From assembly GCA_963790955.1 (NCBI GenBank), contig CAWBQM010000001.1:342464-406463 (forward strand): a DNA stretch of 64,000 nucleotides, read 5' to 3'. A program made the translations under genes and the position numbers. Source of the DNA: an uncultured Chloroflexia bacterium (GTDB lineage Bacteria; Chloroflexota; Limnocylindria; Limnocylindrales; CSP1-4). Shown in pieces: positions 21,883-38,547 of this stretch. Numbering within the stretch: the stretch's first letter is position 1; every line of letters starts with the position of its first letter. The notes under the pieces were generated by a model that was not told the DNA's origin, searched no databases, and worked only from the letters and a program-made list of their open reading frames with translations.

Positions 21883-23490
21883 TCACGCTCCTCTGGGGTC
21901 CCGGCAGGCTGCAGCCTCGACTGCCGACTTGGCTAACCGAATGGAATCCTCGACCTGATCCTCTCCGCCGAGGACCCGTGACCGGACAATTGAGTGCACG
22001 ACGGCGGGGGTGTCGGGCGGGTAGCGGTCCATCCAGGCGGCGACGGCGGCGTAGTCGCCGGCGGACATGATCTCGAGGACCGAGGACTCGATGACCCGGT
22101 GGACGTCGGCGATGTGGCCGGCTTCCGCGTAGTGGTAGGCGGCTCGCTGCCAGTTGCTGCCCTCTGCGAATCGAGCGACCGCGAGATGGAGCTCCGCGAC
22201 CGCGGCGTCGCCCATCGCGTGCACGAGCCGCTCGACGAGGAAGTCCCGGACGAGGGGATGGAAACGTTGCGTGTGTCGGCTCAATTCGCCGCGCCGTGCC
22301 AGCAGACCGACTTTCTCGGCGGACTCGATCAGGAGACGCGCCTGTTCCTCCGAGACGCCGGCAACCACGGCGCCGTAGGCCGGGTCCACCACCTGCAGGA
22401 TCGACGTCCGCATGAGGAACGCCTGCATGTCATCGTCGAGGTCCGCCACGACCTCCTCCGCGAGGTAGTCGTACAGGTCCTCATCGATCCCGGACAGGCC
22501 CCGGACGAACGATCGGATCTCGGCCGGTGATCGGTCGCGCAGTGCCGCCTGGGCCAGCTGGAGCGATGCCGCCCAACCCTCCGTGCGCGACGAGAGATCG
22601 GCAAGAACGTCCGGCTCGAGCGGATGGCCGTACGCCTCACGGAACAGCTGTTCGGTCTCGGGCGGGCTGAAGCGCAGATCCTTCGTCGCCAGCTCGGCCA
22701 CCTCGCCTCGCGCCCGATAGCGGGCGATCGGGATGGACGGGCGCCGACGGCTGGCAAACAGGAAGGTCATCTGCGCCGGCGCACGTTGGATCAACTCGCG
22801 CATGAGGTCGCGCACGTCGGCCACGCTGTCGAGGAGATGCCAATCGTCGAAGATCACGGCGGTCGGCACATCGTCGAGGGCCTGGACCTCGAGCATGAAC
22901 GCCTCGACAATTCGTTCACGGGAGGCACGACCGGTTGCCATGTCGCCGAGCAGGGCGCCGGTGGCCATCGCGAACTCGGGCTTGACCTGCCGTCCCGCCG
23001 CGACCAGGTAATTCAGGACCGAGATCCAGTCCCGATCCTGCTCGTCCAGGCGGTACCACAGGATGCGGCGTCGCGAGTGTCGGGCGTAGTCGGCCAGGAG
23101 CGTGGTCTTGCCGTGGCCGGCCTCCGCGGTGACGAAGACGAGGCGGTGATCCATCTTGTCTTCGAGCCACGACAGGAGCCGCTGCCGTGTCAGGGTCTCT
23201 GCCCGAAGGGGTGGGCGCTGGACCTTGGCGAGCTGGATCTGGAAGCCGGGGCCGAGCGAGCCATAGCCGGCGCTCCCGCTCGAGGATGTGGTCGCGGCCG
23301 GCGCCGACGGAGTCGCCGCGTCGTCATCGGCAGGTTGGGCCGGCACGGCCCGGGGCGCCCTTCGCTCAGCCGGCTCGACCGAGTGGGGCGCCTCCAGCGC
23401 AATGCGGTCGCGCTTGGTCGTCGGTCGAGGCCGGGCATCGACGTATGCGGATGGGACGCGGTCGGGACTGTCTGGCTTGGGCAAGGCCAT
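21883..23490 (-). CDS. STAND/MalT-like P-loop NTPase (N-terminal 535 aa of a longer, interrupted gene)
   Basis: Pro/Ala-rich leader, Walker A VFVTAEAGHGKTTLLADY, Walker B AVIFDDWHLLD, then a MalT-like helical region (EGWAASLQLAQAAL...LYDYLAEEVV...FLMRTSIL). The stop at 21883 is followed out of frame by colinear coding sequence. Confidence 0.8.
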   Translation of the reverse strand: MALPKPDSPDRVPSAYVDARPRPTTKRDRIALEAPHSVEPAERRAPRAVPAQPADDDAATPSAPAATTSSSGSAGYGSLGPGFQIQLAKVQRPPLRAETLTRQRLLSWLEDKMDHRLVFVTAEAGHGKTTLLADYARHSRRRILWYRLDEQDRDWISVLNYLVAAGRQVKPEFAMATGALLGDMATGRASRERIVEAFMLEVQALDDVPTAVIFDDWHLLDSVADVRDLMRELIQRAPAQMTFLFASRRRPSIPIARYRARGEVAELATKDLRFSPPETEQLFREAYGHPLEPDVLADLSSRTEGWAASLQLAQAALRDRSPAEIRSFVRGLSGIDEDLYDYLAEEVVADLDDDMQAFLMRTSILQVVDPAYGAVVAGVSEEQARLLIESAEKVGLLARRGELSRHTQRFHPLVRDFLVERLVHAMGDAAVAELHLAVARFAEGSNWQRAAYHYAEAGHIADVHRVIESSVLEIMSAGDYAAVAAWMDRYPPDTPAVVHSIVRSRVLGGEDQVEDSIRLAKSAVEAAACRDPRGA

Positions 23491-27724: not shown

Positions 27725-28378
27725 TCAGTCCAGGCGGCGGATGACGCCTATCAGCTTCCCTTGAATCCGCACGTCGTCGTAGACCTGGACGGGATAGGCA
27801 GGGTTGGCGGGCTGCAGCCGGACCTTGTCCTTCTCCTTGAAGAAGCGCTTCAGCGTGACCGCGTTCTCCTCGACCTGCGCGACGACGATGTCGCCGTTGC
27901 GGGCCGTGGTCTGCGGGCGAATCAGGACGTAGTCGCCGTCCATGATCGCGGCCTCGATCATCGAATTGCCCCGGACCTTGAGGACATAGGCATCGCCCGA
28001 CGGTGCCAGGAGGTCGGGCACGGACAGCGTCTCGGACGCGTCTTGATACGCCTCGATCGGGCCGCCGGCCGCGATCTCGCCAACGATCGGGATGACGTGG
28101 ACCTCACCCATGGAGCCGGTCTGCGGAACGAGCTCCGATGACAGTCCGAGCCGGATGGCGGCGTGGGGCGTCAGGCGCAGTGCGCGGGACTGGGCCGCAC
28201 CGCGTTCCAGGTAGCCCTCGCGCTCGAGGATCTGCAGGTGATGATGCACGGCAGACGTGGACGCCAGCCCGACCGCGCGGGCGATCTCGCGCACAGACGG
28301 TGGGTAGCCACGGAGGCGCAGCGTCGCCGCGATGTGGTCGAGGATGCGTTGCTTCCGTTCGGCGTCGTGCCTGGTCAC
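27725..28378 (-). CDS. lexA: LexA repressor
   Basis: 217 aa. The wHTH is PPSVREIARAVGLASTSAVHHHLQILEREGYL. The Ala-Gly cleavage site is EIAAGGP. The catalytic Ser is in VRGNSM and the Lys is in LKRF. Confidence 0.95.
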   Translation of the reverse strand: MTRHDAERKQRILDHIAATLRLRGYPPSVREIARAVGLASTSAVHHHLQILEREGYLERGAAQSRALRLTPHAAIRLGLSSELVPQTGSMGEVHVIPIVGEIAAGGPIEAYQDASETLSVPDLLAPSGDAYVLKVRGNSMIEAAIMDGDYVLIRPQTTARNGDIVVAQVEENAVTLKRFFKEKDKVRLQPANPAYPVQVYDDVRIQGKLIGVIRRLD

Positions 28379-28406: not shown

Positions 28407-28420
28407 CGAACAGACGTTCG
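28407..28420 (-). promoter_or_regulatory. LexA operator (Cheo-type SOS box) upstream of lexA
   Basis: Perfect palindrome CGAACAGACGTTCG, 28 nt upstream of the lexA GTG. It matches the Gram-positive/actinobacterial GAAC-N4-GTTC consensus. Confidence 0.85.
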
Positions 28421-30706: not shown

Positions 30707-32713
30707 TCACGCCCCCGGGCCGACCGCGAAGACCTGGTAGTCGCCGGTGTCGATCACGACGGGATAGCGAGCCCGAAACGCGTCCTCGTTCGCCCCGAGC
30801 TGGTCGCGCTCGTACGGGCCGATGACCACGTCGTCGATGCCGGCGCGTGCGATGAGCTCCGGCGCGTCGTCCTGCCAGGTCAGGATCCGGAGCGCCTCCG
30901 CGGCCCGTCCCTGAAACGGCACGCCCTCGGTACCGAGCCAGTCCGAGGAGCCGACATACAGGGTCCGGCCCGACAGGACGGACACCGCGTCGTGATGGAA
31001 CATGCCGGTCAGGAACACGGCCCGCGGCGGCGTGCTGGCGCGGATCTCCGCGGCGAGCTGGACCTGCTCGGCGTCGAGCATCCGGTACGTGCTATGGCCG
31101 AGGGCCTGATTGACTGTCTCGAACACGCCCGACAGGGTCATGGTCGCGATCGCGACGAGCACGGCCGCGCGAATCACGATCGAACGCTGCTCACGCCACA
31201 CGCGCGCGAGCACGGCCGCGACGACGATCGCGCTGGCCAGGAACCAGTACACCAGCCACTTCTGGTTGTCCCAATCCCACGGTTGCAGGACGACCAGGTT
31301 GCCGATCACGAACAGGGGCATGAACGCGAGCAGGAAGCGCCAGGTGCGCCGCGCCAGCGTGGCGCGCCACACGAAGCCGACGATCACGAGCGGCAGGAAC
31401 AGGCCCACGTTGCGCAGCCAGAACACGAGCCAGGCGCCGAGGCCGCCGTCCGTGCCGGCCATCCAGCCGACCAGGACGCGCGCGTACGAGAGCGCACCGG
31501 GCTCGCCGCTGCCCTGCTGATACAGGAGCTGGGGCAGGGCCACGGCTACCCACACGATCCCGAACAGGATCCAGCCGGGGCGCGGCTGGAGGAGGAACAG
31601 GACCGGTACCGCGATCGCGAGCGCCAGCAGGGTCGCGAGGTGCGCGAACGGCAGCAGCCCACCGACGATGCCGGCCAGGATCCAGAGCCGCCCCGCGGAC
31701 GGCGACTCCGTTGCCACCGTGAGCGTGCGCAGGATCGCGAACGCCATCGGCATGCCGTACAGGAACGCGCGCTGGCTCATCCAGAAACCCCAGAACATGT
31801 TGACCCACCAGAAGTCGAGGTTCGTCTTCCACTGGTAGTCCCAGATGCCCTGGTCGATCGCCGTGCCGATGCCCAGCCGGAGCGCCCGATCGACGGGCAC
31901 GAGCCAGGCCAGGTTGCCGCCGAGCAGGAACAGGACCAACGCGAGCGTGCCCGCCAGCTCGCTGCCGGTCAGCCGGCGGGCGAACGCGTACAGGGCGATC
32001 GCGGCGACGATCGTGAGCAGGTACGAGTGGAGCTCGAGCGCCCCCGCCGGATCGAGGCCGAGCGGCACGAGCGCTGCCGCGGTCAGGTCGACCAGCCAGT
32101 GATAGGCGAATGGGTAGCCGGCGAAGCGCGGGTGCTGAGGCGGGAAGTTGTCGCCATACGCGAACGAGCTGACGTTGCCAAGGTGGATCGTGTAATCGCC
32201 CCACACGTTGACGTGGCCCGCCCACAGGCCGTCGGGCCGGTAGCTGAGCGCGCCGGGCCAGTAGTAGGCGCCATGGATGGCGATGGCCACGATCACGATC
32301 ACGGGTAGCCAGCGAACGTGGCGACGGACGCTTGGCCGGAGCGCCGACGCGAGCGCGCCCGGGAATGACGCGGGCGGCGGGCCGGTCCCGCCCGGTGTCG
32401 TGTCGGCCCGCCAGGCGCGGTAACGGTGCGCGATCCGGGGCCCGAGCTCGCCCGTCAGGGCCCCGCGACCGAACGCGATGATCAGCGCCAGCACGACGCA
32501 GGCCAGGGCGTCGACGAGGACGAGCGTCGCGCCCAGGCCGCCGGTCACGATCGCGCCCGGCACGAGCGCGAGGCTGGCCACGACCATGCCGACCGGCACG
32601 CCGTACGCGAAGCGCTCGACGGCGGAGAGATGCCCGAACCAGCGTTCGAACGCCGCCCAGCCAAGGCCGCCCATGGCCGCCAGCACGGCCACGGACAGGA
32701 CGGCGGCGGTCAT
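30707..32713 (-). CDS. Large polytopic membrane protein, DUF2298/'YYY-domain'-like GT-C candidate
   Basis: 668 aa and uninterrupted. [29 protein letters not shown] resembles the FPP.DPWFAG..INYYYFGY signature of the Chloroflexi/Archaea YYY family (from memory), but reads FAYHW instead of YYY. Confidence 0.5.
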
Positions 32714-32803
32714 CGCCGCGAGCCGGTCCGGCGCCGGATCATCGGGACGAGCTGCGCGCGGTGGTCATGGCACCCCATCGTGTCGTCGCGTCGGCGGTCT
32801 GGT

Positions 32804-32850
32804 GGCTCGACGCGATCTCGAGGCTCGACGCGGTCTCGAGGCTCGACGCC
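32804..32850. repeat. 18-bp tandem direct repeat (about 2.6 copies) in the divergent promoter region
   Basis: ggctcgacgcgatctcga (32804-32821), ggctcgacgcggtctcga (32822-32839), ggctcgacgcc... (32840-). Confidence 0.9.
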
Positions 32851-32865
32851 GGCCGCCGTCGGGCG

Positions 32866-34139
32866 ATGATAGGCACGATGACGGAACGAACCATCCTCCA
32901 TGTCGACCTGGATGCGTTCTTCGCGGCCGTCGAGCAGCGCGACCGGCCCGAGCTGCGTGGTCGGCCGGTCGTCGTCGGGGGCGGCGGGCCGAACGACCGG
33001 GGGGTCGTGTCGACCGCGTCGTACGAGGCGCGCGTGTACGGCATCCACTCGGCGATGCCGCTGCGGACCGCGGCCGCTCGTGCCCCGACGCGGTGTTCGT
33101 GCCCGTGCGTGGCAGCGTGTATGCGGCGGTCAGCCGCGAGGTCATGGCGATCCTGCGGCGCTACACGGACCAGGTCGAGCCGATCTCCATCGACGAGGCG
33201 TTTCTCGACGTGACCGGCTCGCGCGCGTTGTTCGGCGACGGCGCGTCCATCGCGCGCTCCATCAAGACCGCGGTCAACGCCGAGACCCAGCTGACGGCGT
33301 CGGTCGGGGTGGCGACGACCAAGCTCGTTGCCAAGATCGCGTCGGACCTGCGCAAGCCCGACGGTCTGGTCGTCGTGGCGCCCGGGACGGAGCCCGACTT
33401 CCTCGACCCCCTGGCCATCGCCCGCTGTGGGGTGTCGGTTCCAAGGCCGCCGCGGCGCTGCGCGAATACGGCGTGGCCACGATCGGCGACCTCGGGCGCC
33501 TGCCGGTCGACGTTCTCGTGCGGCTGTTCGGGGCCCATGGCGCGACGCTGCACGATCGGGCGCTCGGGCTCGATCCCGATCCGGTGGCGGGCCGGGATCC
33601 GGCCAAGTCGGTCGGGCATGAGCACACGTTCGATCAGGACACGTCCGACGTCGACACGATCGAGCGGACCCTCCTTGGCCATGGCCGACGGCGTGGCCGG
33701 GCGCCTGCGGGCGGCCGGGCTACGGGCCGGGACGGTGGCGGTCAAGATCCGCGACAGCTCGTTCCGCACGATCACCCGCCAGCGCCCGCTCGTGCCGCCG
33801 ACCGACATGACCGAGCCGATCTGGCGGGCGGCGCTCGAGCTGGTGCGGCCCGAGGTGCGTGGGATGCGCGTGCGTCTGCTCGGCGTCACATGCTCGAATT
33901 TCGGCGATCAGGAGCAGCTCGCCTTGTTTGCGGGCGAACCCCGAACGGAGCTCCGGCGGCGGCAGGCGGTCGAGGCCGCCGACGAGTTGCGACGACGCTA
34001 CGGTCAGCGGGCCGTGACCCGCGGCCGGCTCATCGGGACCGGCCTGCCGGCGCCGTTCGAGCGGGATCCGCGGACCGCGCCCGAACGCCGGGTCGGCAGC
34101 CGACGGACCAGCCTGACGAACCTGGAGATTGAGCGGTAG
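32866..34139 (+). pseudogene. dinB: DNA polymerase IV (Y-family); 3 frame breaks (about 33,075, 33,425 and 33,675)
   Basis: Catalytic motifs are retained: [67 protein letters not shown] and LWGVGSKAAAAL. The pieces lie in ORFs 32761-, 32478- and 32900-. An alternative ATG is at 32878. Confidence 0.85.
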
Positions 34140-34210
34140 CGTGCCTGGCCCCAGCTCCGGCGCGCAGACAAGCTGTCATTGGCCGGTTGCATGGTGGGCG
34201 GCGTCAGGGG

Positions 34211-34240
34211 TTGACATCGAACACCTGTTCGATCTAGCAT
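34211..34240 (+). promoter_or_regulatory. Sigma-70-type promoter (TTGACA - 18 nt - TAGCAT)
   Basis: TTGACA at 34211-34216 and TAGCAT at 34235-34240, 75 nt upstream of the ATG at 34315. Confidence 0.6.
34218..34231 (+). promoter_or_regulatory. LexA operator 1 (inside the promoter spacer)
   Basis: Perfect palindrome CGAACACCTGTTCG. Confidence 0.8.
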
Positions 34241-34252
34241 CCCTGCACTAAC

Positions 34253-34266
34253 AGAACAAACGTTCT
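34253..34266 (+). promoter_or_regulatory. LexA operator 2 (just downstream of the -10)
   Basis: Perfect palindrome AGAACAAACGTTCT (GAAC-N4-GTTC core). Confidence 0.7.
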
Positions 34267-34314
34267 GTCTGCCGAGTGCCCCGGCTGACGCCACAGGTGA
34301 AAGGAGCCATCACG

Positions 34315-34575
34315 ATGGCCATGACCCGTGTCGAGTCGGTGCCCGTCCGCGTCCGGACCGACTGGTTCGACGGTCGACCGCGCGAGATCCGCTGGGGGCT
34401 GGATCGGTTGCCGGTCACGGCCCTTGCGGCCGTTCGGGAGGAGGCCAGCGCCTACCCCGAGGCCGTCGGGCCGCGGACCGTGTTCGAGGTCGAGACGCCG
34501 CGCGCGCGACTCGCCCTGAGCTTTGCCCACAGGACCCGCCGCTGGACGATCGAGGCGCTCGAGAACGCCGCATAG
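34315..34575 (+). CDS. 86-aa protein of unknown function, predicted SOS-regulated
   Basis: AGGAG lies 8 nt upstream of ATG 34315. Sequence: MAMTRVESVPVRVRTDWFDGRPREIRWGLDRLPVTALAAVREEASAYPEAVGPRTVFEVETPRARLALSFAHRTRRWTIEALENAA. The codon third positions are GC-rich. Confidence 0.65.
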   Translation: MAMTRVESVPVRVRTDWFDGRPREIRWGLDRLPVTALAAVREEASAYPEAVGPRTVFEVETPRARLALSFAHRTRRWTIEALENAA

Positions 34576-34770
34576 GGGCCACCATCCACCGCCGATCGTC
34601 GGCTCCTCCCGGCGATCGGCGTCCGAACCGGTCGCGCGACGAGCCGGTACTCGTCCGTCACCGGATCTGATCGGCGACCGGCCGCGCCACGGCCCAGCGT
34701 GCGCGGCCGGGCCGACCGGAAGGTCGCGGGGGCGTACATTCCCGGGTGTCGTGACTCGTACAATCGATAC

Positions 34771-35389
34771 GTGCAGGACACGGCCGCCGTTACCCCGTAT
34801 CGCGACCTGAGCCTGAGCGCCTTCACCAACCGGCTGGCCTCGTCCGAGCCGGTCCCGGGCGGTGGTAGTGCCTCGGCCGTGGCCGCCGCCATCGCGGCCT
34901 CGCTGGTGTCGATGGTCGCCCAGCTGTCGCTCGGGCGTGACAGGTACGCCGCCCACGTCGAGCTCTTGACCGAGGCACGCGCCCAGGCCGACGCGCTGCG
35001 CGAGCGCCTGCTGGAGCTTGCCGAGGAGGACGCGGACGCGTATGCCGCGTTCGCTCGAGCCCGAAAGCTGCCGCGCGATAGCGAATCGGCGGCCGATGAG
35101 CGTCGACGCGCGATCTCGGTCTCGGCGCGGTCTGCATCGGAGGTCCCGCTGGCGTGTCTCGAGGCATGCATGAGCGTGGCCGAGCTGACCGAAATCACTT
35201 GCCGGGCGGAGCAACGCCAACGCCGGCTCGGACCTGAACGTGGCATCGCTTCTCGCTGAGGCCGCGGCGCGCGGTGCCGCCGCGAACGTCCAGATCAACC
35301 TGCCATCCGTCGACGATCCCGACTGGGTGGGCTCGGTCGAGTCGCGCGTCGACGGACTGTCCACGAGGTCTCTCGCCTCGCGTCGATGA
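34771..35389 (+). pseudogene. Formiminotetrahydrofolate cyclodeaminase / methenyl-THF cyclohydrolase family (FTCD C-terminal domain-like); one frame break near 35,200
   Basis: AFTNRLASSEPVPGGGSASAVAAAIAASLVSMVAQLSLGR and ...EEDADAYAAFARARKLP... are the family signature. After ELTEIT the frame shifts to ...[30 protein letters not shown]... Confidence 0.8.
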
Positions 35390-35480
35390 CGCGCCAGACA
35401 GTCGCGTCCGGCGAGGCGCGACCGCCCCGGGCGATGGCGGGCTGAGCCCCGCCGGCGCCGATCGAGGCGGAGCCGAGTCC

Positions 35481-36393
35481 ATGGCGGGCAACACACGCTC
35501 GCGCGGCCCGCGCCTCTTGCAGGGTGCCCCGATCGCGGCCGAGATCCGGAGCCAAGTCAAGGCGGACATCGCGGTGTTCCGGCGTCGGCACGGGTTCGCG
35601 CCGACCCTCGCCATCGTCCTCGTGGGACGCGATGCCCCGTCGGCCGTCTATCTCCAGCAGATTCTGCGCGGCTGCCGGAACGTCGGTGCCTCGGGACGCC
35701 TGGTCGAGCTGACGGGACGGGTCTCCGGGGCCGGCCTTCGGCGCCAGATCCAGGCGCTCAACGCCGACCCGATCGTGTCCGGGATCATCGTCCAGATGCC
35801 GCTGCCGAGGCGCATTCCCCTGAGCACGGTGACCGAGACGATCGATCCTGCCAAGGACGTGGACGGGATCCGCCGCGGAACGTCGGTCGCCTCGCGCTTG
35901 GCCAGGAGGGCGTTCGTGCCCACGACTGCCCAGGCCGCCGTCGAGATGCTGAAGCGATCCGGACATCCCGATCGAGGGTCGGCGTGCCGTCGTGATCGGG
36001 CGCTCGACGTGGTCGGCAAGCCGCGCCGCCCTGTTGCTGCTGCGCGAGCATGCGACGGTGACCGTGTGCCACACGCGCACGCGTGACCTCGCCGCACGTG
36101 TGAAGCAGGCCGAGATCGTCATCGTCGCGGCCGGCCGGCCGGGGCTCGTACCGGCGCGATGCTGCGCCGCGGCGCCGTCGTCGTCGACGTGGGCATCAAC
36201 GTCGTCGGCGATCGCATCGTCGGCGACGTCGACTTCGAATCCGCCGTCGGTGGCCTCCGCGATCACCCCGGTGCCGGGCGGCGTCGGGACCCGTCACCAA
36301 CGCCCTGCTATGACGCACCTCCTGGCGGCGGCGCGGGCGCAGGCGGGACCGTCCAGCGCGGCACCCGCCCGATCCGCCAGGACGCATCGGTGA
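35481..36393 (+). pseudogene. folD: Bifunctional methylene-THF dehydrogenase/methenyl-THF cyclohydrolase; at least 8 frame breaks
   Basis: Stitched: LLQGAPIAAEIRSQVKADI..PTLAIVLVGRDAPSAVYLQ / GIIVQMPLP / DPAKDVDGI / FVPTTAQAAVEMLKRSG / IPIEGRRAVVIGRS / VVGKP / AALLLLREHATVTVCHTRT / AEIVIVAAGRPGLV / GAVVVDVGIN / AITPVPGGVG / PVTNALL. The 3' end is uncertain. Confidence 0.85.
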
Positions 36394-36426: not shown

Positions 36427-38143
36427 ATGACGGTTCCCGCCAGATCTGGAGATCGCGCGGTCCGTGCGGCCACGGCCGATCCTCGACGTGGCACGCGAGC
36501 TCGGGTTGCGCGACGACGAGGTCGAGCTGTACGGGCCGACGAAGGCGAAGGTCACGACTCGAGGCGATCCTCCAGGCTGGAGGCGGCGAACGCGCGCGGC
36601 AAGTACGTGGTCGTCACGGCGATGACGCCGACGCCGCTCGGCGAGGGCAAGACGACGACGACGGTCGGGCTCGCCCAGGGCCTGAACCGGATCGGGCAGC
36701 GGGCGGCGGTCGCGATCCGCCAGCCATCGCTCGGGCCGGTGTTCGGGATCAAGGGCGGCGCGGCCGGCGGCGGCTACAGCCAGGTCATCCCGATGGAGGA
36801 CTTCAACCTCCATCTGACCGGCGACAACCATGCCATCGGCGCCGCACACAACCTTGCCGCCGCGTTCCTCGACAATCACCTCCACCACGGCAACCTGCTC
36901 GGCATCGACCCGCATCCATCCTCTGGCCGCGCGTGGTCGACATCAGCGACCGGGCGATCCGGCGCGCGGTGATCGGCCTCGGCGGACGGGAGAACGGTGC
37001 CGCCGCGTGAGACCGAGTGGCAGATCACCGTCGCGTCGGAGGTCATGGCGGTGCTCGCGCTCGCCTCCGACCTGGCCGATCTGCGTGCGCGGCTCGGGCG
37101 GATCGTGCTCGCGATCGACGCTCGACGGCCGGCCGATCACGGCCGAGGACCTGAGGGTCGCGGGTGCGATGGCGGTGCTCCTGCGGGACGCGCTCAAGCC
37201 GAACCTGCTGCAGACGCTCGAGGGCGGCCCGGCCTTCGTCCACGCGGGCCGTTCGCCAACATCGCCCACGGCAACAACTCGGTGCTCGCCGATCGGCTCG
37301 CGCTCGCGACGACCGACATCGTCTGCACCGAGGCGGGCTTCGGGGCCGACATGGGCGCCGAGAAGTTCTTCGACATCAAGTGCCGAGCGTCGGGCCTGCG
37401 CCCGGATGCGGCCGTCGTCGTCGCCACGATCCGGGCCCTCAAGATGCACGGCGGCGTGGGCCGAATCGTGGCCGGCAAGCCGCTCGACCCGGCGCTCGCC
37501 CTCGAGGATCGTCGAGGCGGTTCGCCGTGGCGCGGCCAACCTCGCCAAGCAGATCGAGAACGTGCGCCGAGTTCGGCGTGCCGGTGGTCGTCGCGATCAA
37601 CGCGTTCCCGACCGACACGACCGACCGAGATCGACGCGGTCGCCGAGGTCGCGCTCGAGGCCGGTGCGCGCGCGCGCGGTCGTGACCCGCCATTTCACCG
37701 ACGGCGGTGCCGGTGCGGTCGACCTCGCGGAGGCCGTATGGGCCGCGGCGTCGGAGGGCGCGCCCGACTTCCGGCTGCTCTATCCGGACGAGGCCAGCCT
37801 GACCGACAAGATCGAGACGATCGCGGTCCGCATCTACGGCGCGACCGGCGTCGATGTGCTGCCGCGCCGCCGCGAAGGCGCTCGCACCGTACGAGGCAGC
37901 TGGGTTTCGGTCGGCTGCCGGTGTGCATGGCCAAGACCCAGTACTCGCTCAGCCACGACCCGACGCTCATGGGCCGGCCCGACGGGCTTCCGCGTGCCGG
38001 TCCGCGACGTCCGCCTATCGGCGGGCGCCGGCTTCGTGACACCGCTGTGCGGGGAGATGCGGACGATGCCGGGGCTGCCGTCGCGGCCGGGCGGCGAGAG
38101 CATCGACATCGACGCCGACGGGAACATCGTCGGATTGTTCTGA
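36427..38143 (+). pseudogene. fhs: Formate-tetrahydrofolate ligase; at least 13 frame breaks
   Basis: Stitched: [23 protein letters not shown] / [25 protein letters not shown] / [34 protein letters not shown] / [15 protein letters not shown] / [14 protein letters not shown] / [12 protein letters not shown] / [19 protein letters not shown] / [12 protein letters not shown] / [17 protein letters not shown] / [15 protein letters not shown] / [20 protein letters not shown]...GNIVGLF*. Confidence 0.9.
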
Positions 38144-38198
38144 GCGCGGACGGGCGTTGCGGTCGTGGCCGCTGGGCGTGGCCGCAGGCTCGCGGACC

Positions 38199-38227
38199 CG
38201 GCGCGTGGCCGCCGGCGCGTGGCCGCC
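38199..38227. repeat. 14-bp tandem GGCGCGTGGCCGCC x2, with two looser GCGTGGCCGC copies at 38164-38185
   Basis: Read directly from the sequence. Part of the repeat-dense convergent spacer 38144-38604. Confidence 0.8.
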
Positions 38228-38244
38228 GTCGCACCCGGGCGCCC

Positions 38245-38345
38245 CCCGGCGTCATGCGACGCGCCGCCCCGTCATGCGACGCGCCCCGGCGTCATGTGAG
38301 GGCGCCGCCCCGTCATGCGACGCGCCGCCCCGTCATGCGACGAGC
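38245..38345. repeat. Five direct repeats of a 20/21-bp unit (consensus CGTCATGCGACGCGCCGCCC)
   Basis: GTCATG starts at 38251, 38271, 38291, 38312 and 38332. The third unit is degenerate (GTCATGTGAGGGCGCC). Confidence 0.9.
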
Positions 38346-38454
38346 GAATGAACGGACCGCTCATTGGCCGCTTGATGCGCCAGCCGACTCGTCCGTCCAG
38401 GGTCACCGGCGATTTCAGTCATTAGGAGCCTCAAACGGCCCATCGAACGGTTCG

Positions 38455-38547
38455 TAGAGCCACCGGGCGCATAGAAGGCCGGGAGAGTGCCGGGAGAGGG
38501 CCGGGAGAGGGCCGGACAAACGCCTCCTAGAGTCACCGGGCGCATAG
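38455..38547. repeat. 21-nt direct repeat pair TAGAG(C/T)CACCGGGCGCATAG flanking three tandem 11-mers GCCGGGAGAG(T/G)
   Basis: The direct repeats lie at 38455-38474 and 38528-38547 (20/21 identical). The 11-mer array lies at 38478-38510, plus a partial copy. Confidence 0.9.

Follow-up and report, generated by a model that had tools for sequence, protein, structure and literature searches.

Which gene beside the Y-family polymerase gene dinB is predicted to respond to the SOS system in an uncultured Chloroflexia bacterium, and what might its product do? We address this question in a 64,000-nt stretch of DNA (hereafter the window; assembly GCA_963790955.1, contig CAWBQM010000001.1, positions 342,464 to 406,463), in which an open reading frame (ORF) of 86 amino acids (aa) follows dinB on the same strand and is preceded by a promoter of its own. 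The ORF (34315–34575, plus strand, TAG stop ending at 34575) encodes a basic, all-beta, ImuB-C-like protein, as judged from homologs, selection, a structure model, and profile similarity. On balance, and with moderate confidence, we read it as a free-standing, highly diverged beta-barrel of the type of the C-terminal domain of ImuB (ImuB-C), which would serve as SOS-gated accessory subunit of the adjacent upstream DinB/PolY polymerase. All coordinates below refer to the window and, unless stated otherwise, to its plus strand.

The two-operator promoter and its conservation

The promoter is formed by the −35 hexamer TTGACA (34211–34216) and the −10 hexamer TAGCAT (34235–34240), both identified by sequence reading and by a promoter scan and separated by an 18-nt spacer. 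This spacer holds the LexA-type operator 1, CGAACACCTGTTCG (34218–34231), while operator 2, AGAACAAACGTTCT (34253–34266), covers approximately +6 to +19 of the predicted transcript; both are perfect GAAC-N4-GTTC palindromes. A ribosome-binding site, AGGAG (34302–34306), is located 8 nt 5′ of the ATG and is kept as (A)AGGAG in orthologs. All elements that an earlier note on this DNA had described, namely promoter, two perfect palindromes, AGGAG-ATG, and 86-aa ORF, are present, with the one correction that the second palindrome follows the −10 hexamer at a distance of 12 nt rather than 13 nt. In a consensus scan of positions 32400–35000, the promoter at 34211 is the lone sigma-70-like site, matching at 10 of 12 positions (0.1 expected).

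Five GAAC-N4-GTTC boxes occur in the window, compared with 0.52 expected, a count reached in none of 100 shuffles. Two of them belong to the promoter of the small ORF, one to lexA, and two lie within coding sequence. The lexA gene (27725–28378, minus strand) encodes a protein of 217 aa with LexA DNA-binding and S24 peptidase domains, which is 79% identical to the LexA of a related locus (L002) and whose domains are detected by Pfam in the orthologous loci. Its autoregulatory box, CGAACAGACGTTCG (28407–28420), is a perfect GAAC-N4-GTTC palindrome 29 bp upstream of the gene, and wherever a related locus covers lexA and its upstream region, a box occurs immediately ahead of the gene; the match between the small-ORF operators and the lexA box extends beyond the single case seen before. 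The two coding-sequence boxes (22642–22653 and 32636–32647) were rejected as LexA sites: they fall within EQLF and ERWF codons, are unconserved in relatives, and probably arose by chance. The latter is situated 230 bp upstream of dinB, inside the adjoining gene.

The core palindrome is identical to that of the Gram-positive-type LexA box, CGAAC-N4-GTTCG, also at lexA here. This box type is reportedly found in Dehalococcoides, another member of the Chloroflexi. While the motif as such is ordinary, its tandem layout, in which the spacer and the leader each hold an operator, sets the promoter apart.

For comparison with relatives, a one-genome-per-species scan identified 381 loci encoding homologs, of which 80 were kept. 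The comparison of promoters comprises 91 loci from the two closer subfamilies (Candidatus Limnocylindria, Chloroflexota) and three further loci from a more distant third subfamily. Two perfect boxes, 30–35 bp apart, precede the ORF in 91/91 loci of the two closer subfamilies, which together with the window represent 86 distinct promoter sequences. In nearly all of these, (C)TTGACA(T) abuts box 1, and the −10 element follows the pattern TAnnnT (TAGCAT, TACTGT, TAGAGT, TACAGT, TATGCT, or TATCAT). The second subfamily accommodates the entire promoter in the 80–137 bp that follow the dinB stop codon. Both boxes are also present in two of the three loci of the third subfamily; in the remaining one (L104, 6890–7000), operator 1 in the spacer is lost and operator 2 is retained, so that operator 2 is kept in 94/94 related loci examined. 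The layout of boxes in front of the orthologs is not a matter of chance, and the promoter with two LexA-type operators inferred from the window alone proves real and strongly conserved.

The region upstream of dinB presents the opposite picture. As previously noted, no GAAC-N4-GTTC occurs between 32,714 and 32,865, and only 2/85 loci have a perfect box in the 250 bp preceding dinB, which is at or below the background rate. Because boxes accompany the small gene in all 91 loci compared with 2/85 for dinB, the small gene, and not dinB, is by sequence the conserved SOS-box target of the region. In one subclade (L042, L043, L044, L058, and L070), a one-mismatch box, GAACATCCGGTC, is conserved 42–61 bp upstream of dinB. 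It could represent a weak LexA site, perhaps placing dinB under direct SOS control in that subclade. Loci of the L089 type, where lexA is directly followed by dinB in the same orientation, may be a further exception to the rule that dinB is without SOS box.

The 86-aa protein and its probable kinship with ImuB-C

Homologs and substitution pattern mark the 86-aa ORF as a genuine gene that evolves under purifying selection. Conservation in relatives, on which the earlier note had made its proposal depend, is extensive: the three subfamilies comprise 569, 144, and 464 homologs (>1,100 in all), almost all 86–93 aa long. Members of the closest subfamily (569 homologs at 90% clustering, 86–90 aa) are, where named, labelled Candidatus Limnocylindrales or Chloroflexota; they are 67–86% identical and share 29 invariant residues, whereas identity between subfamilies amounts to 35–50%. 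The pairwise ratio of non-synonymous to synonymous substitution rates (dN/dS) is 0.20 at a median dS of ~1, and the entropy of third codon positions exceeds that of positions 1 and 2 two- to threefold. V13, R41, E43, P53, and W77 are invariant across all subfamilies, and P22, A46, G52, R54, and R76 nearly so; in a set of 45 diverse members, W77 and R41 never vary, while R54 and R76 are conserved in at least 90%. The protein is very basic (isoelectric point 10.35), has a grand average of hydropathy (GRAVY) of −0.33, and is devoid of hydrophobic segments. Scans of the window protein against Pfam, NCBIfam, and PHROGs assign no family, and a tblastn search with one family member against plasmids returned no match.

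A lead to its identity came from weak DUF6504 matches of divergent family members (P0205, E = 0.011; P0237, E = 0.062); the window protein itself shows no match to DUF6504 at E ≤ 1. The C-terminal 70 residues of the S. meliloti ImuB encoded in the imuA-imuB-dnaE2 cassette of pSymA match DUF6504 at a sub-threshold 17.2 bits, and split-off ImuB C-termini carry the name "DUF6504 family protein" in NCBI annotation. Based on these two observations, DUF6504 corresponds to ImuB-C, which has been defined as beta-rich, with conserved basic residues and a conserved tryptophan at the C-terminus (PMC3765255).

Profile–profile comparison strengthens this connection. Aligned by hhalign, our 45-sequence family alignment and 10 ImuB C-terminal domains from alpha- and betaproteobacterial plasmids match end to end over 76 columns (probability 71.5%, P = 3.6e-5). 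The score of 31.5 is reached by none of 200 column-shuffled controls (10.9 ± 2.2, maximum 18.3), and reversed alignments score approximately 12. A larger alignment of 378 family sequences reproduces the ImuB-C alignment (P = 9e-5). Moreover, P22, R54, and W77 of the family coincide with the invariant or near-invariant proline, arginine (of RDY), and C-terminal tryptophan of ImuB-C. We therefore consider the small protein a probable, if distant, relative of ImuB-C as far as sequence profiles can tell, and the likeness to small DUF proteins beside Y-family/ImuB-type polymerases, which the earlier note had offered tentatively, was the right lead.

The fold model points in the same direction. AlphaFold2, supplied with a 24-sequence alignment, predicts an all-beta protein of seven strands with a predicted local distance difference test (pLDDT) score of 85. 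In a Foldseek search of the PDB, the best template modelling (TM) score is 0.45 and no match is obtained at E ≤ 0.001; monellin-like structures (TM-score 0.45 or below) were rejected as non-specific. Sequence searches of the PDB yield nothing meaningful with the family profiles and no solved ImuB-C with the S. meliloti ImuB C-terminus. An all-beta model devoid of PDB relatives agrees, compared by description, with the account of ImuB-C as a modelled beta-barrel of novel fold without PDB relatives (PMC12926913). In a viral structure library, the best match to the model of 34315–34572 is A0A8S5PG70 (TM-score 0.65/0.56, root-mean-square deviation 2.5 over 86 columns, E = 0.016). This uncharacterised protein of 100 aa stems from an uncultured siphovirus and could be a phage-encoded version of the fold.

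Small size and promoter layout would also befit an SOS effector without kinship to ImuB-C. It might act as checkpoint protein or inhibitor of cell division, as SulA, YneA, and SidA do, or modulate RecA or LexA in the manner of DinI or RecX; the ImuB-C similarity, detected at the profile–profile level only, would then be spurious. Double operators are typical for genes that are harmful when leaky, and small, lineage-specific, tightly LexA-repressed proteins encoded near lexA are typically division inhibitors. SulA, YneA, SosA, SidA, and ChiZ, the SOS division inhibitors, carry a membrane anchor, a LysM domain, or the SulA fold, and their genes usually diverge from lexA. In contrast, the protein described here is modelled as soluble and all-beta, lacks a hydrophobic segment unlike YneA, SosA, SidA, and ChiZ, matches neither SulA nor DinI, RecX, or YebG in the Pfam, NCBIfam, and PHROG scans, and is encoded ~6 kb from lexA in non-divergent orientation. 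Its class-wide conservation, with 35–45% identity between subfamilies, is above what division inhibitors usually show. Together with an hhalign score far beyond the shuffle distribution and aligned invariant residues, this makes an effector of that kind unlikely.

The adjacent polymerase, gene order, and transcript

In every locus with room for it, and in all three subfamilies, dinB is directly upstream of the small ORF on the same strand. No imuA, dnaE2, ku, or ligase gene is found within 6–7 kb in the 15 annotated loci; over this range, the synteny that the earlier note had suggested checking is with dinB and not with dnaE2. In loci that reach far enough upstream, lexA is 1.3–6 kb away. Eleven loci (L001, L014, L018, L022, L023, L026, L029, L047, L048, L055, and L063) contain 0.7–1.5 kb of extra DNA between dinB and the promoter. 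Gene calls in which polymerase and small protein appear fused (P0190, P0176, P0145, and P0192) were rejected as frameshifted or chimeric; P0176 contains the translated promoter.

The dinB-type gene, our presumed partner, occupies 32866–34139 and is spread over three frames in this assembly. The catalytic motifs DLDAFF and SIDEAFLD occur both in the window and in relatives, in which dinB is intact and encodes 403–440 aa with IMS and IMS_C domains. The frame shifts are located near 33080, 33400, and 33655, and folD (35274–36393) and fhs (36427–38457) are likewise split between frames. Orthologs of all three genes are intact in related loci, many of which stem from long-contig "MFD" metagenome-assembled genomes. 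Most likely, the split frames reflect indel errors of long-read assembly rather than pseudogenes.

The polymerase carries a C-terminal extension (33915–34070) that is conserved across loci and comprises QLALF, the RecA-NT/ImuB-linker-like segment AVEAADELRRRYGQRAVTRGRLIG, and LPAPFERDP; its consensus reads QLxLF, then xxEAADxxRRR(F/Y)GxRAxTRxRLxG, then LPAPFERDP. QLALF resembles a clamp-binding motif. By eye, the tail is colinear with the ImuB linker xLxDxLxxRxGxxxxxR...PER, which precedes ImuB-C. Owing to this colinearity, weak as its statistics are, the pair resembles an active ImuB that has been divided immediately ahead of ImuB-C. The terminal LPAPFERDP (34044–34070) is almost invariant at DinB C-termini across the class and may serve the small protein or RecA as a docking peptide.

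An ImuB-C-like protein need not act on its neighbour, and its partner might instead be DnaE2, Ku/ligase, or another repair protein encoded elsewhere, or it might work alone as a sensor of damaged DNA. In ImuB, ImuB-C has been modelled as binding the PHP domain of DnaE2 as well as ImuA (PMC12926913), and its stand-alone form, which is also encountered together with Ku/ligase, SplB photolyase, SRAP, and others, has been proposed to be a DNA-binding damage sensor (PMC3765255). The protein described here is very basic. A promoter and, probably, a terminator hairpin belong to the small gene alone, and no co-regulation with dinB is visible. Yet dinB is the sole DNA-repair neighbour that is constantly adjacent in all three subfamilies, whereas no gene for dnaE2, imuA, ku, or ligase is found within 6–7 kb of any locus examined. 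A partner other than the adjacent polymerase, or none, is therefore unlikely in our assessment.

Downstream, an FTCD_C-like gene, folD, and fhs follow the small ORF on the same strand in most loci, an order that raises the question of whether the SOS promoter mainly serves these one-carbon/folate genes, with the small ORF as leader or incidental first cistron. In keeping with this, a scan found no canonical U-tract terminator. However, a 13-bp GC-rich hairpin (34590–34621) without U-tract begins 15 nt 3′ of the stop codon (z = −2.3 for a 91-nt region, determined for the window only); it is a possible terminator or 3′ stabiliser and suggests a monocistronic transcript. Furthermore, the protein is strongly constrained (dN/dS 0.2, 29 invariant residues in the closest subfamily). 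In L089, dinB is still adjacent although a convergent gene lies between the ORF and FTCD_C with the other folate genes, and a gap of 1.3–1.8 kb lies between ORF and FTCD_C gene in L019, L053, L068, and L081. Despite insertions on either side, the LexA boxes always travel with the small ORF. A promoter dedicated chiefly to the folate genes is consequently very improbable.

Immediately after operator 2, the 5′ leader contains a stem-loop or palindrome, GTCTGCCG / AGTGCCC / CGGCTGAC (34267–34289), recognised in a 48-locus alignment. Pairing is preserved in 72.6% of cells compared with 22–45% when the partners are slid; the loop GTGCCC is near-invariant, and some U-A to A-U swaps are compensatory. 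The element could act in the mRNA or as binding site of a second regulator. No Rfam family reaches threshold for promoter and leader, and a sub-threshold RpsF-leader match was rejected. In one subclade (L011, L013, L019, L032, L034, L053, and L061), the leader harbours an insertion of ~100 nt, situated ~100–195 nt upstream of the ORF, which folds into a long and very stable hairpin (−81 kcal/mol, z = −4.8) and places the LexA boxes at about −197. This insertion has no Rfam match and may be a repeat, an element resembling miniature inverted-repeat transposable elements (MITE-like), or a structured leader.

Proposed role and comparison with known systems

Taken together, these features suggest how the small subunit might be gated. 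In the undamaged cell, LexA bound to operator 1 would fill the −35/−10 spacer and block binding of RNA polymerase, while operator 2 at ~+6 to +19 would act as a roadblock, so that both operators together would keep the gene tightly off. Upon DNA damage, RecA filaments would trigger self-cleavage of LexA, and the strong TTGACA/TAnnnT promoter would fire. The small basic protein would then accumulate and join the polymerase, probably along with RecA and by way of the conserved extension at the polymerase C-terminus. It might thereby license or target translesion synthesis, a role proposed here by analogy to those of UmuD′ (Pol V) and of ImuB-C (ImuA-ImuB-DnaE2 mutasome). LexA binding, damage induction, interaction with the polymerase, and an effect on translesion synthesis are all putative, inferred steps. 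More tentatively, and with less confidence than we place in the accessory subunit itself, the SOS response of Limnocylindria might regulate not the polymerase but only this tiny beta-barrel subunit, with a ~10-kDa protein as the possible switch that makes a constitutive DinB damage-specific and, perhaps, mutagenic; stand-alone ImuB-C would in that case gain a defined role.

Several observations weigh against the accessory-subunit reading. No family member attains the gathering score of Pfam PF20114 (DUF6504), the best reaching 16.4 and 14.0 bits compared with 24.2; since the genuine S. meliloti ImuB also fails this score, the model appears to be narrow. The hhalign probability is just 59–72%, and sequence-versus-profile scores of hidden Markov models amount to at most 10.7 bits. 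Because such plain searches are weak, the kinship with ImuB-C has to be regarded as remote; in sequence, the homology is visible at the profile–profile level only. The ImuB-C comparison set consists solely of proteobacterial ImuB. As to the polymerase, its tail compares weakly with ImuB linkers (hhalign P = 0.014, over a short motif), Pfam finds no DUF4113 match in it, and the RecA-NT-like motif is unconfirmed. As all homologs come from one class and one syntenic locus, adjacency to dinB may be inherited gene order; the downstream folate genes are almost as constant as dinB, and the small gene, with its own promoter, forms no operon with the polymerase. Nevertheless, none of the rival explanations matches the accessory-subunit reading in accounting jointly for the constant dinB linkage and the ImuB-C similarity.

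Of the modules of bacterial mutasomes, ImuB-C is the least understood. With an active polymerase, a separate minimal ImuB-C-like protein, an unusually clear SOS promoter on the small subunit alone, and neither ImuA nor DnaE2 encoded nearby, the locus offers a natural study case. It further provides a functional hypothesis for >1,100 "hypothetical proteins" of an abundant uncultured class of soil and freshwater bacteria, defines for Limnocylindria a predicted LexA box as well as a minimal marker of the SOS regulon, and illustrates that Pfam DUF6504 misses divergent members.

The arrangement is probably a diverged, class-wide instance of a kind already described in the literature, that is, of a stand-alone ImuB-C beside an active Y-family polymerase. 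Stand-alone ImuB-C is most often encoded beside DinB and often with lexA (PMC3765255, Aravind 2013), and modules of active PolY, stand-alone ImuB-C, and RecA, without ImuA and DnaE2, have been delineated (PMC6511836, Timinskas and Venclovas 2019), among which the lexA-imuB-C(GSU0042)-polY operon of Geobacter sulfurreducens is damage-induced (PMC6511836). In these two studies and in PMC12926913 (NAR 2026), functions of stand-alone ImuB-C are assigned by computation only, and Chloroflexi or Limnocylindria are unmentioned in all three. Like the PolY-[ImuB-C]-RecA modules, the locus described here encodes a ~90-aa beta-rich protein with conserved C-terminal tryptophan and basic residues; as in these modules and in Geobacter, a catalytically intact DinB-type polymerase adjoins, lexA is close, imuA and dnaE2 are absent from the locus, and control is predicted to be of the SOS type. 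In contrast to Geobacter, the order is polY followed by the imuB-C-like gene instead of lexA-imuB-C-polY, and the small gene has its own two-operator promoter, while the polymerase lacks a box. Unlike known stand-alone ImuB-C, the sequence is missed by Pfam DUF6504 and by sequence–profile searches. Judged from sequence, the distinctive feature is thus regulatory: the small subunit alone appears to be gated, by a double operator.

Compared with ImuB-C as a part of ImuB in the ImuA-ImuB-DnaE2 mutasome, the small protein shows profile similarity over the whole domain with aligned proline, arginine, and tryptophan residues and is likewise all-beta, and the polymerase tail weakly resembles the ImuB linker (xxDxxRRRFGxR...P(F)ER). 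Different from mutasome ImuB, however, the domain here forms a polypeptide of its own, the polymerase retains intact catalytic residues, and genes for ImuA or DnaE2 are lacking in the vicinity. With UmuD′ of Pol V and YolD/YqjX, the small protein shares the principle of a small accessory subunit under LexA control that completes a translesion polymerase complex. The core of UmuD′ and YolD is SH3-like, from which ImuB-C is reported to be distinct (PMC12926913), and no S24 peptidase domain is present here. Finally, whereas umuD-umuC is governed as one operon by one operator, here the small subunit alone would be placed under LexA control.

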